A DNA stretch of 17,483 bases from Myxococcaceae bacterium. GTDB taxonomy: Bacteria; Myxococcota; Myxococcia; Myxococcales; Myxococcaceae. This document shows positions 2,666 to 7,856 of this stretch, one piece after another (the first letter of the stretch is position 1; the number at the start of each line of letters is the position of its first letter). The notes beneath the pieces are model-generated. The model saw only the letters and a list, made by a program, of their open reading frames with translations, was not told where the DNA came from and searched no databases. Both the position numbers and the translations under genes were made by a program. Where the stretch lies: the NCBI GenBank assembly GCA_004173515.1, contig SECN01000117.1, forward strand, positions 1 through 17,483, in the 5' to 3' direction.

Positions 2666-3487
2666 ATGTCCACCCTCAAAGGCAAGACCCTCTTCATCTC
2701 CGGTGCCAGCCGTGGCATCGGCCTGGCCATCGCGCTGCGCGCGGCCCGGGACGGCGCCAACATCGTCATCGCCGCGAAGACGACCGACCCGCACCCCAAG
2801 CTGCCCGGCACCATCCACACCGCCGCGAAGGAGATTGAAGCCGCGGGCGGCAAGGCGCTGCCCTGCGTGGTGGACATCCGCGACGAAGCGCAGATCCACG
2901 CGGCCGTGGCCAAGGCCGTGGAGACCTTCGGCGGCATCGACATCCTGGTGAACAACGCCAGCGCCATCAGCCTCACCGGCACGCTGGAGACGCCGCTCAA
3001 GCGCTTCGACCTGATGCACGGCATCAACACGCGCGGCACCTTCGCGTGCTCGCAGGCGTGCCTGCCGTACCTCAAGAAGTCCTCCAACCCGCACATCCTC
3101 AACAACTCGCCGCCGCTCAACATGGAGGCGCGCTGGTTCGGCCCCCACGTCGCCTACACCATGGCGAAGTTCGGCATGAGCATGTGCGTGCTCGGCATGG
3201 CGGAGGAGTTCAAGGACGAGGGCATCGCCGTCAACGCCCTCTGGCCGCGCACCGTCATCGCCACCGCCGCCGTGCAGAACCTGCTGGGCGGCGATGAGAC
3301 CATCAAGGGCAGCCGTTCGCCGGAGATCATGGCCGACGCGGCCCACGCCATCCTCACCAAGCCCAGCCGCTCCTTCACCGGCAACTTCTGCATCGACGAG
3401 GACGTGCTGCGCGGCGTGGGCGTCACCAACTTCGACAAGTACCAGTCCGTGCCCGGCGCGGAGCTGTTCCCCGACTACTTCATCTGA
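2666..3487 (+). CDS. Short-chain dehydrogenase/reductase (SDR) family oxidoreductase with an HSDL2-like catalytic domain.
   Basis: It has a TLFISGASRGIGLAIALRAARDGANIVIAAKT Rossmann motif (TGxxxGxG type) and a YxxxK region. The start is chosen at ATG 2666 (MSTLKGK) with GAGG nine nt upstream. ATG 2657 is an alternative start. Confidence 0.85.
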   Translation: MSTLKGKTLFISGASRGIGLAIALRAARDGANIVIAAKTTDPHPKLPGTIHTAAKEIEAAGGKALPCVVDIRDEAQIHAAVAKAVETFGGIDILVNNASAISLTGTLETPLKRFDLMHGINTRGTFACSQACLPYLKKSSNPHILNNSPPLNMEARWFGPHVAYTMAKFGMSMCVLGMAEEFKDEGIAVNALWPRTVIATAAVQNLLGGDETIKGSRSPEIMADAAHAILTKPSRSFTGNFCIDEDVLRGVGVTNFDKYQSVPGAELFPDYFI

Positions 3488-3537
3488 CCGTCGGACCCAC
3501 CGTCGGGGCGCATGGGTGCGCCAGGAGCAAGGCCCTC

Positions 3538-4458
3538 ATGCCCCCGCGCAAGCTGCTGCGACACCTGGTCTGGCTGGAGTCCTTCACCGCGGCGGTGGAG
3601 GCGGGCAGCATCGACGCCGCCGCGGAGCACCTGGGCGTCGCCCGCTCGGTGGTGAGCGAACACATCCGCGCGCTGGAGGAGGCGCTCGCGGATGGCGCGG
3701 CCCTGCTGGAGCGAGGCCCCGGACGCAGGCTGCAACTGTCCGCGCGCGGCGAGCGCCTCTACGCGGGCACCCAGACGCCGCTGCACCAGTTGGACATGAA
3801 GCGGCTCATGGACCTGGCGCGCGTGGAGCCCACCCTGCGCCTGGGGCTCAACCCCACCCTGTCCATGTCACTGCTCGGCGGCATCGCGCAGGACGCGGCC
3901 GCCACCGACCTCAAGCTGGTGGTGGGCTTCGGCGGCTCGCACGAGCTGGTGCGGCAGGTGCAGACACGGCAGCAGGACCTGGTGCTGGACTTCACCCCGT
4001 TGCCGCCGCACGACGGCGTGGAATCCGAATCGCTGCTGCGCATGTCCTTCGTGGTGCTCGCAGGCCCCGACTCCGCGCTCGTCCAGCAGCAGTCCGCCCG
4101 GCGCGCGCTGGATGTGAAGGACCTGCAGGGTCAACGCTTCGTGGACTGGTTGCGCGACGACCCCTACGGCGGCGCCAACAGCGCGCGCTTCGCCGCCCAG
4201 GGGGTCAAGGTGGACGAGGTGGGCCGCGTGGAGAGCTTCCTCCACCTCTACGAACTGCTGCGCGCCTACCGCGCGTGCGCCATCGCCCCCGACGTGCGGC
4301 CCACCCAACCCTTCCCCTCCGACGTCCACGTCTGGCCCCTGCGCGAGGCCGAGCCCCAGGTCGTGGAGGTGGTGGCCCTCTGGCCCTCCGGCGGCCTCAG
4401 CCCCGGCGCCCACGCCGTGCTGGACGGCCTGCGACGTCGGCTCCGCAAACGGCGATAA
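3538..4458 (+). CDS. LysR-family transcriptional regulator.
   Basis: There is an N-terminal HTH (LRHLVWLESFTAAVEAGSIDAAAEHLGVARSVVSEHIRALEEAL). The 306-aa length is typical of LTTRs. AGGAG sits 10 nt upstream of the ATG. Confidence 0.85.
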   Translation: MPPRKLLRHLVWLESFTAAVEAGSIDAAAEHLGVARSVVSEHIRALEEALADGAALLERGPGRRLQLSARGERLYAGTQTPLHQLDMKRLMDLARVEPTLRLGLNPTLSMSLLGGIAQDAAATDLKLVVGFGGSHELVRQVQTRQQDLVLDFTPLPPHDGVESESLLRMSFVVLAGPDSALVQQQSARRALDVKDLQGQRFVDWLRDDPYGGANSARFAAQGVKVDEVGRVESFLHLYELLRAYRACAIAPDVRPTQPFPSDVHVWPLREAEPQVVEVVALWPSGGLSPGAHAVLDGLRRRLRKRR

Positions 4459-4460
4459 TC

Positions 4461-4479
4461 CGACGAAGACGTCGTTTTC
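4461..4479 (+). terminator. Small hairpin CGACG-AAGA-CGTCG followed by TTTTCT, immediately after the LysR stop.
   Basis: A 5-bp stem is followed by a T-run. The evidence is weak. Confidence 0.25.
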
Positions 4480-4550
4480 TGCCGGATTTCCGTCCTCCGC
4501 TGACATGGGTATCTTCCAGGTGTCCTGTTTCTCTTGAAGGAGCCTCCGAG

Positions 4551-6146
4551 ATGACCCCCACGGAACGGACGATCGCTCGCCTGCCCGCGCACCTGCGCCG
4601 CTACGTCGTGTCGCAGGACTACGCGGCCTATACGCCTCGCGACCAGGCGGTGTGGCGGCACATCCTGGGGCAGCTCCGGGGGCACCTGCGCGACAAGGCG
4701 CATCCCGTCTACCTGGAGGGTCTGGAGGCCACCGGTATCGGCGCGGAGGCCATCCCCAGCCTGGATGAGATGAACGAGAAGCTGTCGAAGCTGGGCTGGT
4801 CGTGCGTGGCGGTGCGCGGCTTCATCCCGCCGGCGGTGTTCACGGAGTTGCAGGCGCTGGGCGTGCTGGCCATCGCGGCGGACATCCGCACGCACGAGCA
4901 CATCCAGTACACGCCCGCGCCGGACATCGTCCATGAGAGCGCGGGGCACGCGCCCATCATCGCGAACAAGCGCTACGCGGAGTACCTCAAGGCCGTGGGG
5001 CTGGTGGGGTTCAAGGCCATCGCGAGCGTGGAGGACCAGGCCGTCTTCGAGGCCATCCGCAACCTGTCGGTGGTGAAGGAGGACCCGACGGCGAGCGACG
5101 CGGAGATCGCCCACGCGCAGGCCCGCCTGGAGGCCGCGAATGAGAGCCACCGCTACATCAGCGAGAGCACCCGCGCGAGCCGCCTGTACTGGTGGACGGC
5201 GGAGTACGGGCTCGTGGGTGACCTGGAGCGTCCGCGCATCTACGGCGCGGGCCTGCTGTCGAGCATCGGCGAGGCCAAGCACTGCCTGACGTCCGCGGTC
5301 CAGAAGCTGCCGCTGGGCGCGGTGTGCGCGGACACGGACTACGACATCACCCGCATGCAGCCGCAGCTCTTCGTGGCGCGGGACTTCGAGCACCTGTTCG
5401 AGGTGCTGGCGGAGTTCGAGGCGACGCTCGCGTGGAAGCGCGGCGGGGACCTGGGCCTGAACGAGGCGCTGCGCGCGCGCACGGTGAACCACCTGGTGCT
5501 CGCGGACGGCCGCGAGGTGACGGGCAAGGTGGTGGAGCTGCTGCCTGCCGCCGGCGAGGTGGCTCCCGGGCTGTCCACCGCGATGGTGCGGTTGGAAGGC
5601 CCCATCCTCACGTCGCTCGACGGGCAGGCGCTGGACAAGCCGTTCAGCGGCGCGGCGCTGGTGGCCTTTGGGCAGGGCAGCCTGCCGGAGCGCGGGAACT
5701 TCCGGCTCGCGTTGGACAGCGGGCTGGTGCTGGAGGGCTTCGCGGTGGACGGCGGCGAGGTGATTGCCCTGAGCGGGACGCTCGCGGGCAAGCCGCTGGA
5801 GCTGCCGTCGATGGCGCGCCTGTACCTGACGGAGCGGCTGCCGTCGGTGGCGGGAGGCCCCGCGGATCCGGGCGCGTGGGACCGGTGGTTCGGGGAGATG
5901 AACGCCTTCACGGCGGGCGACGGCGAGGCGCAGGCGCGTGAGCGCAAGGCGAAGGCGCTGCATCCGTCCCTGGCGGCCCTCTACACGGAGGTGCGCCGCA
6001 TCCGGGAGACGGGACAGCTCGTGGCGGATCGGCTGGAGCAGATCGCCCGGGCCTCCTCCGACTTCCCGTCGGACTGGCTCTTGCGCGCCGAGGTCGCGGA
6101 GCTGCGCGGAGAAGTGCCCGCGAAGCGGGACACGGCCCACGCGTAG
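4551..6146 (+). CDS. phhA: Aromatic amino acid hydroxylase of the phenylalanine 4-monooxygenase (PAH) family. It is atypically long at 531 aa, with an internal insertion and a C-terminal extension of about 230 aa.
   Basis: GAAGGAG lies 8 nt upstream of ATG 4551. An iron-binding 2-His motif (PDIVHESAGHAPII) is present. A downstream LYWWTAEYGL...IYGAGLLSSIGEAKHCL block matches the human PAH block IYWFTVEFGL...AYGAGLLSSFGELQYCL. Confidence 0.85.
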   Translation: MTPTERTIARLPAHLRRYVVSQDYAAYTPRDQAVWRHILGQLRGHLRDKAHPVYLEGLEATGIGAEAIPSLDEMNEKLSKLGWSCVAVRGFIPPAVFTELQALGVLAIAADIRTHEHIQYTPAPDIVHESAGHAPIIANKRYAEYLKAVGLVGFKAIASVEDQAVFEAIRNLSVVKEDPTASDAEIAHAQARLEAANESHRYISESTRASRLYWWTAEYGLVGDLERPRIYGAGLLSSIGEAKHCLTSAVQKLPLGAVCADTDYDITRMQPQLFVARDFEHLFEVLAEFEATLAWKRGGDLGLNEALRARTVNHLVLADGREVTGKVVELLPAAGEVAPGLSTAMVRLEGPILTSLDGQALDKPFSGAALVAFGQGSLPERGNFRLALDSGLVLEGFAVDGGEVIALSGTLAGKPLELPSMARLYLTERLPSVAGGPADPGAWDRWFGEMNAFTAGDGEAQARERKAKALHPSLAALYTEVRRIRETGQLVADRLEQIARASSDFPSDWLLRAEVAELRGEVPAKRDTAHA

Positions 6147-6176: not shown

Positions 6177-6274
6177 TGGTGTGGCCCTTAGATCGAGACC
6201 GCGTGCTGGAGGGTGATGTGACGCGCCGCCTGGACGGCCGTCACTCCCCGGAAGCCTCCGCGAAACGACAGGAT

Positions 6275-6287
6275 GGCAATCATTGCC
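6275..6287. promoter_or_regulatory. Palindrome GGCAATcATTGCC upstream of the beta-helix gene. It is a possible operator.
   Basis: A perfect 6-bp inverted repeat with a 1-nt spacer lies in the 290-nt intergenic region. Confidence 0.2.
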
Positions 6288-6437
6288 GTGCAACTCCTTC
6301 CGCACGGAACCCTCCCGGTTGGAATCCGCACCGGCATTGCCCAGACGTATTGTCGCGAGCGGGCTCATCTTCGATCTCGGGAAGGGTGTCAGAGGGTTCG
6401 AGTATCAATGCGTGGCGACCCGATGAAGGGAGAACCC

Positions 6438-7856
6438 ATGGCACCTCCTGTTCTCACTGACGACAAGCCGCAGACGCCCAACGTGATGCTGGCCGGGTGG
6501 GATTGGTCCGAGACCACCCCACCGTGGGCCTACACCTCCGCGAGCGCGTGGGAATCCAGGCTCCCCGCAGGCGTGCCGGTGGCGCCTCTGAGCACCGTGG
6601 CGGGTGACTTCTACACGAAGCTGCAAGCCACGGTGAACGCGGCCCCCGGACGGGTCATCGTGCGGCTGCCGGCGGGCGTTTTCACCCTCACCCAGTTCCG
6701 TGTGATCGGCTCCAGCGGCAACCCCACGTATGCGTTCGGGTTCTTCTTCCCGAAACTCGCTGGGTTCGTCGGGGCTGGGCCAGACAAGTCGATCATCGAG
6801 ATGGCGGCAGGGTCGGTGAGTCAGGCGCAGTTGTCGCATATGTCCACCATGACCCAAGCTTCCTTCGCCCAGTTGCTGATGGGCATGTGCCGACTCGACA
6901 CCCAGTACTCGAACGCACCGGCACCGGTCTATCTGGGGGGCGTCGGCTTCGAGGCCGCGCCACAGCCGCTGCTCACGTCGATCAGCGGCGACATCACGAA
7001 CGGCGTGTACGTTCCGCAGTCGGCACCGCATCTGGGCGTGGCGCTCTACTCGGATTCGAGCCGTCGTCACCCCGACACCCTGGTGACGCACTGCCGGTTC
7101 CGGGGTGCGGGCAAGGCGATGACCAGTCAGCCTCCGTTCGAGCTGAGCAACATCACCAGCCAGCGGAACCACGTCACCTACGAGCACACGGAGTTCGACG
7201 GGCGCATGAGTCCCCGCTACGACGCGGCACGCCCCCGCAAGTGCGGGCCGTTCATGGCGAACGGCGGGGTCACACAGCACGTCACCGACTGCTGGATGCA
7301 TCACTCCAACGTGTCCCGGTACGCCGCGAACGACGAAGCGGTCGCGTCCGCCACGGCCCTGTCGAACCACTACCGGATCGAGCGGTTGAAGATCGAGCAG
7401 ATCACCAACAACCAGAACCGGCAGCCTCCGATCAACGGTGGCAACTCCCTGGGCGGGTACACGAACGCATCGTGCATCGGGTTCGAGTCATCGAACGCGC
7501 GGATCGAGATCATCGACTGCATCGCGTCCGTGGACAACAACCTCATCGCGGGGCAGGTTCCCTGTCACATCCAGTTGACCAACACGGGCGCTGCTCGTGC
7601 CGGTGGGCGGCTGTACGTGCGCGGCGGTGAGTTCCGTCACACGGCGTTCCCGCAGTTGAATGGCTTCGTGACGTTCCGCATCCAGCCCTCATCGAACTGG
7701 TGGACGGACGGTTTCAACACGACCCTCGACGTGCGCGACACCAATGACAGACGGCTGCTCCCGTATCAGGTGACGGGTACATGGCCCCCCACGGCCGCGG
7801 CGCTGGCCTCGGCAGGGGTCACCCCGGCGACCCACTACCTGATCCGAAGCACCTAG
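6438..7856 (+). CDS. Hypothetical protein, probably a right-handed parallel beta-helix (pectate-lyase-superfamily-like) with no signal peptide.
   Basis: GAAGGGAG lies 5 nt upstream of ATG 6438. ATG 6408 is an alternative start. The N-terminal block DFYTKLQATVNAAPGRVIVRLPAGVFTL resembles the start of pectate_lyase_3-type beta-helix proteins. Many short beta-strand-like repeats follow. GC is slightly lower than in neighbouring genes. Confidence 0.55.
   Translation: MAPPVLTDDKPQTPNVMLAGWDWSETTPPWAYTSASAWESRLPAGVPVAPLSTVAGDFYTKLQATVNAAPGRVIVRLPAGVFTLTQFRVIGSSGNPTYAFGFFFPKLAGFVGAGPDKSIIEMAAGSVSQAQLSHMSTMTQASFAQLLMGMCRLDTQYSNAPAPVYLGGVGFEAAPQPLLTSISGDITNGVYVPQSAPHLGVALYSDSSRRHPDTLVTHCRFRGAGKAMTSQPPFELSNITSQRNHVTYEHTEFDGRMSPRYDAARPRKCGPFMANGGVTQHVTDCWMHHSNVSRYAANDEAVASATALSNHYRIERLKIEQITNNQNRQPPINGGNSLGGYTNASCIGFESSNARIEIIDCIASVDNNLIAGQVPCHIQLTNTGAARAGGRLYVRGGEFRHTAFPQLNGFVTFRIQPSSNWWTDGFNTTLDVRDTNDRRLLPYQVTGTWPPTAAALASAGVTPATHYLIRST

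Follow-up and report, generated by a model that had tools for sequence, protein, structure and literature searches.

A LysR-paired long-form aromatic amino acid hydroxylase gene with a conserved operator-like element in a Myxococcaceae contig

The stretch of DNA analyzed here, positions 1 to 17,483 of contig SECN01000117.1 of a Myxococcaceae bacterium (called the window in the following), carries on its forward strand two neighboring genes, which encode a LysR-type transcriptional regulator (LTTR) of 306 amino acids (aa; positions 3538..4458) and a long-form aromatic amino acid hydroxylase (AAH) related to phenylalanine hydroxylase (PAH; positions 4551..6146). The latter was recognized from its translation and from its matches to PF00351 and NF010657. 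The two genes are separated by 92 nt, and a conserved intergenic element, AAACGGCGATAATCCGACGAAGACGTCGTTTTCTGCCGGATTTCCG (4447..4492, + strand), starts in the last codons of the LysR gene and overlaps the −35 region of the putative promoter of the hydroxylase gene. The hydroxylase frame contains no internal stop over 531 codons and ends with a TAG codon; direct reading of the sequence reveals an AAGGAG ribosome-binding site (4537..4542, + strand) 8 nt before the ATG. The GC content of the window is 69%. The GC content at third codon positions (GC3) of the hydroxylase gene is 0.95 overall, and because it stays at 0.85–1.0 per 180-nt segment up to the stop codon, the C-terminal part of the protein, which has no counterpart in short bacterial PAHs, is considered to be coding as well. 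The same frame is open 419 codons further upstream, resulting in a mechanical open reading frame (ORF) of 950 aa (3294-6146, + strand). An N-terminal extension from position 3294 was rejected, as the GC3 of the additional stretch is 0.47 and part of it is occupied by the LysR gene in a different frame, which marks it as a spurious high-GC ORF.

The catalytic domain is encoded in two parts, i.e., aa 1-159 (4551..5027), containing R113, Y120, D125, H128, E129, and H133, and aa 209-310 (5175..5480), containing W214, E218, and the YGAGLLSS motif, all located by HMMER alignments to solved PAHs. Biopterin_H (PF00351) is the only Pfam family found on the protein (E=3.6e-30; 105.6 bits vs. a gathering score of 22.7), and the match is split into two stretches by an insertion (aa 160-208; 5028..5174). 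The triad H128/H133/E218 and E129 lie in motifs that align with those of C. violaceum PAH. From established PAH structures, we take the triad to be the iron ligands and E129 to be the pterin-binding glutamate beside the first histidine. These four residues, as well as R113, Y120, D125, W214, and S237, are invariant in an alignment of 141 long-form sequences from several phyla. Thus, the PAH-like core with a 2-His/Glu iron site, which had been proposed from the DNA sequence in the original prediction, is borne out by PF00351 and by the alignments to solved PAHs.

The same holds for the approximately 45 extra residues that had been noticed after the His pair. In the HMMER alignment to C. violaceum PAH, residues 17-158 and 209-289 of the protein correspond to residues 26-168 and 175-257, respectively, so that 50 residues face 6 and the net insertion between the His pair and the Glu amounts to ~44 aa; the peptide quoted initially corresponds to residues 160-211. 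The insertion is absent from C. violaceum PAH. It is, however, contiguous in the alignment with the protein in PDB entry 7VGM ("Phenylalanine hydroxylase from Bacillus cereus ATCC 14579", released 2022-04-27), and none of the 141 aligned long-form sequences lacks it. An AlphaFold2 model predicts a two-helix hairpin for this segment, with helices at 160-177 and 183-198 (pLDDT 82-93). When searched separately against Pfam at E≤10, the insertion gave no match.

The protein belongs to a family that has already been curated. It scores 634.6 bits against NCBIfam NF010657 ("aromatic amino acid hydroxylase"), an equivalog with 580 positions and a cutoff of 346, and aa 8-523 match profile positions 4-540; the last ~40 positions of the profile are absent in the myxobacterial subgroup. 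In contrast, the cutoffs of the short-PAH models TIGR01267 and NF008877 are not reached (189.8 < 247 and 157.3 < 264.75 bits), nor are those of the eukaryote-type models TIGR01268, TIGR01269, and TIGR01270 (95.6, 83.1, and 79.3 bits vs. cutoffs of 704.8, 654.65, and 705.5, respectively), and no ACT domain was found in the protein with Pfam. The closest solved structure by sequence is chain A of 7VGM (592 aa; E=5.6e-102), and the alignment is continuous through the insertion. Together, the NF010657 score, the helical insertion of ~45 aa, and the C-terminal fold as in 7VGM identify the gene as an ordinary member of the already known long-form bacterial AAH family, with 7VGM as its prototype.

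Relatives of this length are abundant. The best 120 database relatives, 521-553 aa long, show 69-92% identity over 96-100% of the query and stem from the genera Corallococcus, Myxococcus, Pyxidicoccus, Archangium, Cystobacter, Stigmatella, Hyalangium, and Anaeromyxobacter; a protein of Corallococcus exercitus is 92% identical across 100% of the length. A scan of species-representative genomes yielded 363 stretches encoding a relative of the hydroxylase, and all counts given below out of 80 loci refer to the best 80 of them. At these loci, the identity is 67-96%, with C. praedator and C. terminator at the top (96%), and Acidobacteriota are represented by Holophagaceae, Geothrix, and Solibacteraceae. 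Myxococcaceae and Archangiaceae thus have full-length orthologues with 68-96% identity throughout, as do some Acidobacteriota. In Bacillota, homologues with 33-44% identity are common as well: a search seeded with the 7VGM sequence retrieved relatives, mostly of 516-574 aa, that are common in Bacillaceae, Paenibacillus, Exiguobacterium, and Thermoactinomycetaceae and occur in a few other lineages. Both the insertion and the C-terminal extension are present throughout the 141-sequence alignment, and they are ancestral, family-defining parts of these enzymes. The description of the protein as unusually long, with an extension without assignable similarity, therefore does not hold, as many homologues have this length and the extension is covered by the NF010657 profile and by 7VGM. 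Since the architecture was already present in a curated family and in a crystal structure, the novelty of the gene is low; it is a routine orthologue in a family that is annotated automatically by NCBI, and its value as a discovery is small.

The relationship to better-known hydroxylases is restricted to the catalytic half. The short bacterial PAHs (PhhA; C. violaceum 1LTU, Colwellia 2V27, Legionella 4BPT) share with the protein the catalytic fold, the iron triad, and the substrate- and pterin-binding residues (E ~1e-26 to 1e-31; target-normalized TM ~0.75-0.78). However, they are monomeric proteins of 264-297 aa without the insertion or the C-terminal module, whereas the protein of 531 aa has both. 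The eukaryotic PAH, tyrosine hydroxylase (TH), and tryptophan hydroxylase (TPH) have a homologous catalytic domain with the YTPxPDIxHE and YGAGLLSS motifs in common with the protein, but they are tetrameric and possess an N-terminal ACT domain and a C-terminal coiled coil. The protein lacks an ACT domain and a tetramerization helix; its extra module is located C-terminally, and the fold is unrelated to that of the regulatory parts of the eukaryotic enzymes.

The alignment with short PAHs stops near residue 289, and the β-strands following the catalytic domain start at residue 312 in the AlphaFold2 model. Hence, the extension measures ~220 aa, close to the ~230 aa estimated initially. The model of the full protein is of high quality (mean pLDDT 92.9, pTM 0.90) and shows, besides the catalytic domain, about nine strands in the segment 312-435 and five helices in the segment 440-520. 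Accordingly, the extension can be divided into a β-module (aa 311-436; 5481..5858), which shows weak likeness to an Sm-like small barrel, and a helical bundle (aa 437-521; 5859..6113). In a Foldseek comparison with the PDB, 7VGM was the top match (TM 0.83 over 547 columns with 35% identity), and this match includes the extension, while the matches to short PAHs and to eukaryotic hydroxylases are confined to the catalytic half (TM ~0.4 when normalized to the query). The identity to 7VGM, which represents the family described by NF010657 and PRK14056, is ~35% overall and ~19% in the extension. The myxobacterial protein is ~40-50 aa shorter, part of the β-module and the last helices being absent.

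No relative of the extension was found outside this family. In the structure comparison, 7VGM was its only structural relative; the extension did not display an ACT-like or other recognized ligand-binding fold, and searched separately against Pfam at E≤10, it gave no match. A phmmer search with aa 300-531 against 1.84 billion representative proteins produced 56 hits only, i.e., mostly short proteins that are matched from their first residues, which are taken to be truncated gene calls, together with two full-length AAHs of 516 and 535 aa. This was the check for a stand-alone domain that had been suggested initially. A stand-alone or promiscuous domain was rejected: neither a clear stand-alone form nor a clear other fusion partner emerged, with a few hits of 382-698 aa, matched in multiple short stretches, left uninspected.

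In the 141 sequences, G396, G436, and R485 in the extension are invariant, and W509, E514, and E517 are nearly so. The extension is 58-95% identical between the query and its relatives, vs. 76-99% for the core, and its dN/dS values are 0.17-0.56 vs. 0.06-0.36. Thus, the extension evolves faster than the core, yet it is clearly constrained and under purifying selection. These observations bear on the possibility that the extension is a translation artefact, created by the loss of a stop codon or by fusion to a downstream ORF, a caveat that had been raised when the gene was first described. The length excess over short PAHs is the only feature of the protein that would suggest it, although long spurious ORFs are frequent at a GC content of 69%, as the frame open from position 3294 illustrates. 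Full-length orthologues, however, exist in >100 clusters and in 80 genomes, the curated profile of 580 positions spans the extension, the crystal structure 7VGM contains it, its GC3 and dN/dS values are those of a coding sequence under selection, and its structure is modeled with confidence. An artefact is thereby excluded for practical purposes, and we attach next to no probability to it.

A clue to the position of the module relative to the catalytic domain was provided by a methods paper in which 7VGM serves as an example and a figure of a hydrogen-bonding network names the side chains of R32, D62, R494, E530, and E533 (10.1101/2022.11.21.517405). In the HMMER alignment, these residues correspond, in this order, to R36, E66, R482, E514, and E517 of the protein, which are retained by 139, 139 (E or D), 127, 140, and 140 of the 141 sequences. 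The alignment further pairs R485 and W509 with R497 and W525 of 7VGM, and the five conserved residues of the helical bundle, i.e., R482, R485, W509, E514, and E517, are each kept in 127-141 of the 141 sequences. Because the equivalent residues are pictured together in the published figure and are conserved, the charged side chains R482, R485, E514, and E517 in the C-terminal helices seem to attach the module to R36 and E66, which lie on the N-terminal side of the catalytic domain.

What the docked module contributes can be envisaged in different ways, among them the regulatory or substrate-delivery function suggested initially, and it may simply stabilize the enzyme. It may also be an allosteric sensor of an amino acid or another metabolite, or an oligomerization device, comparable to the ACT domain and the coiled coil of eukaryotic PAH, rather than a passive appendage. 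Its conservation from Bacillota to Myxococcota, including the invariant and near-invariant residues, and the purifying selection acting on it agree with such a role. Furthermore, it would contact the N-terminal part of the catalytic domain, a region that is autoregulatory in mammalian PAH, and small Sm-like barrels are of a kind that often binds ligands or oligomerizes. We regard this as a tentative proposal with the odds somewhat against it. Rather less probable still is a more specific version, in which the Sm-like β-barrel and the helical bundle together would constitute an as yet undescribed allosteric or partner-binding domain that senses an amino acid or pterin, or recruits a pterin-recycling enzyme, and that is combined with an uncharacterized LysR-operator pair in a two-gene unit occurring in two phyla. 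If true, bacteria would have found an independent solution to the regulation that is carried out by the ACT domain in eukaryotic PAH.

The residues lining the substrate pocket are of the PAH type. We assume that W214, Y120, R113, S237, and G234 are equivalent to W326, Y277, R270, S349, and G346 of human PAH; W214 presumably occupies the position where TPH has a Phe, and Y120 that where TH has a His. The aromatic residue at 219 and G234 presumably mark positions where Phe 3-hydroxylase reportedly differs. All five mapped pocket residues are invariant in the 141 sequences, and this conservation argues for a PAH-type pocket throughout the family.

The gene context in Bacillota points in the same direction. 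In Paenibacillus spongiae, the long AAH gene is the last in a run consisting of hppD, an unknown gene, a fumarylacetoacetase (FAA hydrolase) gene, and hmgA (homogentisate dioxygenase). In Evansella, a Pterin_4a gene, encoding pterin-4a-carbinolamine dehydratase (PCD), lies directly upstream of the long AAH gene. On a B. cereus-like contig, the product of which is 94% identical to 7VGM, a Pterin_4a gene is present two ORFs downstream of the AAH gene, and the ORF in between looks like a split-off 3' end of the AAH gene. Moreover, T-box leaders were found directly upstream of the long AAH genes at two Exiguobacterium loci and on the B. cereus-like contig (L089 4761-4955, L090 2736-2940, and L091 131-357; 111.6-136.3 bits vs. 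a gathering score of 93). In standard T-box leaders, a single base separates the specifier codon from a preceding GAA in the specifier loop, and a purine comes directly after the codon. All three leaders read GAA-U-UAC-A at this position, which fits this architecture, and, by our reading, UAC would be a Tyr codon and the leaders Tyr-specific. Control by uncharged tRNA-Tyr would be expected of a phenylalanine hydroxylase that produces tyrosine. This leads to a simple physiological hypothesis, in which the long-form enzymes would supply Tyr from Phe. An hmgA mutant of B. anthracis was reported to form pyomelanin from Phe, and the authors pointed to the putative pterin-dependent PAH BAS4253 (PMC4457819). 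In Pseudalkalibacillus sp. SCS-8, the 685-nt spacer in front of the long-form hydroxylase gene contains a Bacillaceae-1 sRNA (RF01690, 61.8 bits; L087 4837-4904).

Thus, residue conservation and gene context point to hydroxylation of Phe to Tyr as the most likely reaction, and the initial question whether Phe, Trp, or a different aromatic compound is the substrate is narrowed toward Phe. Alternatively, the enzyme could act on another aromatic substrate, converting Trp into 5-hydroxy-Trp, Phe into meta-Tyr, or a precursor of a secondary metabolite, with the C-terminal module serving in the selection or delivery of the substrate. In favor of this, natural-product pathways are abundant in myxobacteria, the name given to the family by NCBI is just "aromatic amino acid hydroxylase", and the literature search described below yielded no biochemical data on the family. 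However, the invariant pocket is of the PAH type, and no genes for nonribosomal peptide synthetases, polyketide synthases, or tailoring enzymes flank the hydroxylase gene. In addition, the flanking regions differ between Corallococcus and Myxococcus whilst the LysR-AAH pair is retained, and the Bacillota genes are linked to Tyr-read T-boxes, PCD, and the homogentisate pathway. Hydroxylation of a substrate other than Phe, or at another position, is therefore considered unlikely.

The LysR gene is a conserved upstream partner of the hydroxylase gene. Its product contains an HTH_1 domain (PF00126; 8.1e-13; aa 12-72) and a LysR_substrate domain (PF03466; 1.4e-19; aa 97-302), which substantiates the earlier identification of a LysR regulator immediately upstream and in the same orientation; it does not reach the cutoff of any NCBIfam equivalog, and no characterized LTTR equivalog was matched. 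In M. xanthus, the gene at the same position encodes a protein that is 81% identical, while the other neighbors differ. Using tblastn, a full-length LysR orthologue with 60-97% identity was found on the same strand, directly upstream of the hydroxylase gene, at 58 of the 80 loci, where it ends ~110-180 nt before the hydroxylase start; at 6 more loci, the 3' end of the LysR gene lies at the contig edge. The LysR partner is missing from Anaeromyxobacter and Geothrix. Based on this pairing, expression of the hydroxylase is probably controlled by the upstream LysR protein in Myxococcaceae, Archangiaceae, and some Acidobacteriota. As in other activator systems of the LTTR type, a regulator with HTH_1 and LysR_substrate domains adjoins the gene that it would regulate. 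The gene order differs, as the regulator gene lies upstream in the same orientation and is not transcribed divergently. The Bacillota relatives differ in this respect, with Tyr-read T-boxes and with PCD and homogentisate-pathway genes as neighbors instead of a LysR gene and a candidate operator.

The LysR-paired loci include eleven in metagenome-assembled genomes labeled Acidobacteriota (L053, L054, L057, L058, L059, L062, L065, L080, L081, L082, and L086), belonging to Solibacteraceae and Holophagaceae. The LysR proteins and hydroxylases encoded there are 60-66% and 68-73% identical, respectively, to those of the window, and the operator-like element is included, which suggests either transfer between phyla or mis-binned contigs. 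A further locus, on a record labeled "Comamonas sp. KCTC 72670" (L019, BNCN01000006.1), encodes a hydroxylase with 79% and a LysR protein with 81% identity to those of the window, separated by a Myxococcus-type spacer; this record is probably mislabeled or contaminated.

The 46-nt element at 4447-4492 could be aligned without gaps between the window and 65 orthologous loci of Myxococcota and Acidobacteriota. The window contains a single copy, vs. 0.01 expected matches, and at the orthologous loci (L007-L086) the element is located ~60-110 nt upstream of the hydroxylase start. The element consists of half-sites arranged as CGTCG-N6-CGACG-N4-CGTCG, followed by a T-rich stretch and by the nearly invariant CGGATTTCCG. 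A TAnnnT hexamer follows CGGATTTCCG at a distance of exactly 17 nt at 56 of the 66 loci and of 16 nt at 5 more; in the window, it reads TATCTT (4510..4515, + strand), and the conserved spacing suggests that it functions as a −10-like box. With dyad-containing sites ~20-70 nt upstream of a −10-like box and a poor −35, the region resembles promoters controlled by LTTRs.

The hairpin with a U-tract between the two genes, noticed already in the original prediction, is present, as CGACG-AAGA-CGTCG followed by a TTTTC tract (4461..4479, + strand), and it coincides with the second dyad of the element. It might be an intrinsic terminator or an RNA leader at the end of the LysR transcript, in which case the two genes would be independent, without a regulatory link. 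A terminator-like scan indeed matches 4461-4474 followed by TTTTCTGCCG, and the hairpin comes directly after the LysR stop codon. An intrinsic terminator, however, would have a stable, GC-rich stem that is kept by compensatory changes in combination with a U-tract, and such a structure was not found. The stem comprises only 5 bp, and with a folding z-score of −1.14 its stability does not exceed that of shuffled sequences. Among 61 distinct orthologous sequences, 28 retain the complete stem; pair 31-38 shows 19 disruptions vs. 2 compensatory changes, and in the three core pairs the bases themselves are conserved, rather than the pairing through covariation. The conservation extends across two phyla and includes flanking blocks that cannot join the hairpin, and, as discussed above, the pairing of the two genes itself is kept. 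An RNA element in the spacer was rejected too, as the spacer between the LysR and AAH genes gave no match to Rfam and the pairing is not maintained. A terminator or leader thus appears improbable. Because the bases are conserved while the pairing is not kept and the fold is unremarkable, the hairpin is better read as part of a protein-binding site, and the 46-nt element is probably a LysR operator and part of the promoter, located beside and over a weak −35.

Taken together, the enzyme would be a non-heme Fe(II), tetrahydropterin-dependent monooxygenase of the long-form AAH family, which would convert L-Phe, O2, and tetrahydropterin into L-Tyr and a 4a-hydroxypterin. The Tyr formed may serve as a supply or may feed aromatic catabolism via homogentisate. 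R482, R485, E514, and E517 of the C-terminal module would interact with R36 and E66 and thereby hold the module against the N-terminal side of the catalytic domain, and the LysR protein would bind CGTCG-N6-CGACG-N4-CGTCG and CGGATTTCCG, upstream of and over the weak −35 and 17 nt before the TAnnnT box. We are reasonably confident that this combination of a long-form AAH, conversion of Phe into Tyr, a docked module, and a LysR-controlled promoter is the best explanation of the locus. The LysR gene with the conserved operator-like element would then form a clean regulatory unit that is found in two phyla.

Several observations weigh against this explanation. A full-text literature search did not reveal enzymology of any long-form AAH or any myxobacterial AAH, nor was a primary paper on 7VGM found; for this reason, the assignment of substrate and regiospecificity relies on residue conservation and gene context. 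Thus, of the initial reservation that proteins of this length might be common and already characterized, the first part applies, as they are common, curated, and represented by a crystal structure, and the second does not extend to enzymology. Pathway genes were found as neighbors at only three of the seven Bacillota loci inspected, the other four being devoid of them, and genes for pterin recycling or the homogentisate pathway (PCD, hppD, hmgA, and fumarylacetoacetase) are absent from the window itself. The module is not identical to that of 7VGM, as the myxobacterial subgroup lacks ~20 aa of the β-module and ~35 aa of terminal helices that are found in the Bacillota proteins. Its docking was deduced from the figure legend and text of a methods paper. 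Finally, a scan with a strict sigma-70 consensus did not find a promoter, and the binding of LysR to the element is itself deduced from the sequence.

Besides the LysR gene, the neighbors of the hydroxylase gene in the window encode a Kelch/Ig protein, an SDR, a protein of unknown function, a metalloprotease-like protein, an HmuY-like lipoprotein, a homologue of major vault protein, two GDSL lipases, and an RdgC-like protein. The ORF directly downstream of the hydroxylase gene (6273-7856, + strand) has a probable start at 6408-6438, a length of 472-527 aa, and a GC3 of 0.83; it matched no Pfam or NCBIfam model and is not conserved beside the hydroxylase gene in M. xanthus. On the opposite strand, an ORF of ~570 aa (7980-~9700), for which Pfam gave no match, carries a zinc-protease-like HEFFH motif and a region rich in DAGT. 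It adjoins the gene for a putative lipoprotein of 347 aa (9626-10669, − strand) that has TDAGT repeats and, at its C-terminus, an HmuY-like domain (3.7e-11). The homologue of eukaryotic major vault protein, of 764 aa (10753-13047, − strand), contains an MVP_shoulder domain (2.4e-45) and Vault, Vault_2, Vault_3, and Vault_4 repeats, followed by a long coiled-coil-like tail. Further along the same strand, two tandem genes with overlapping ends (13189-14118 and 14085-15029) encode GDSL-family lipases/acylhydrolases of 309 and 314 aa, respectively.

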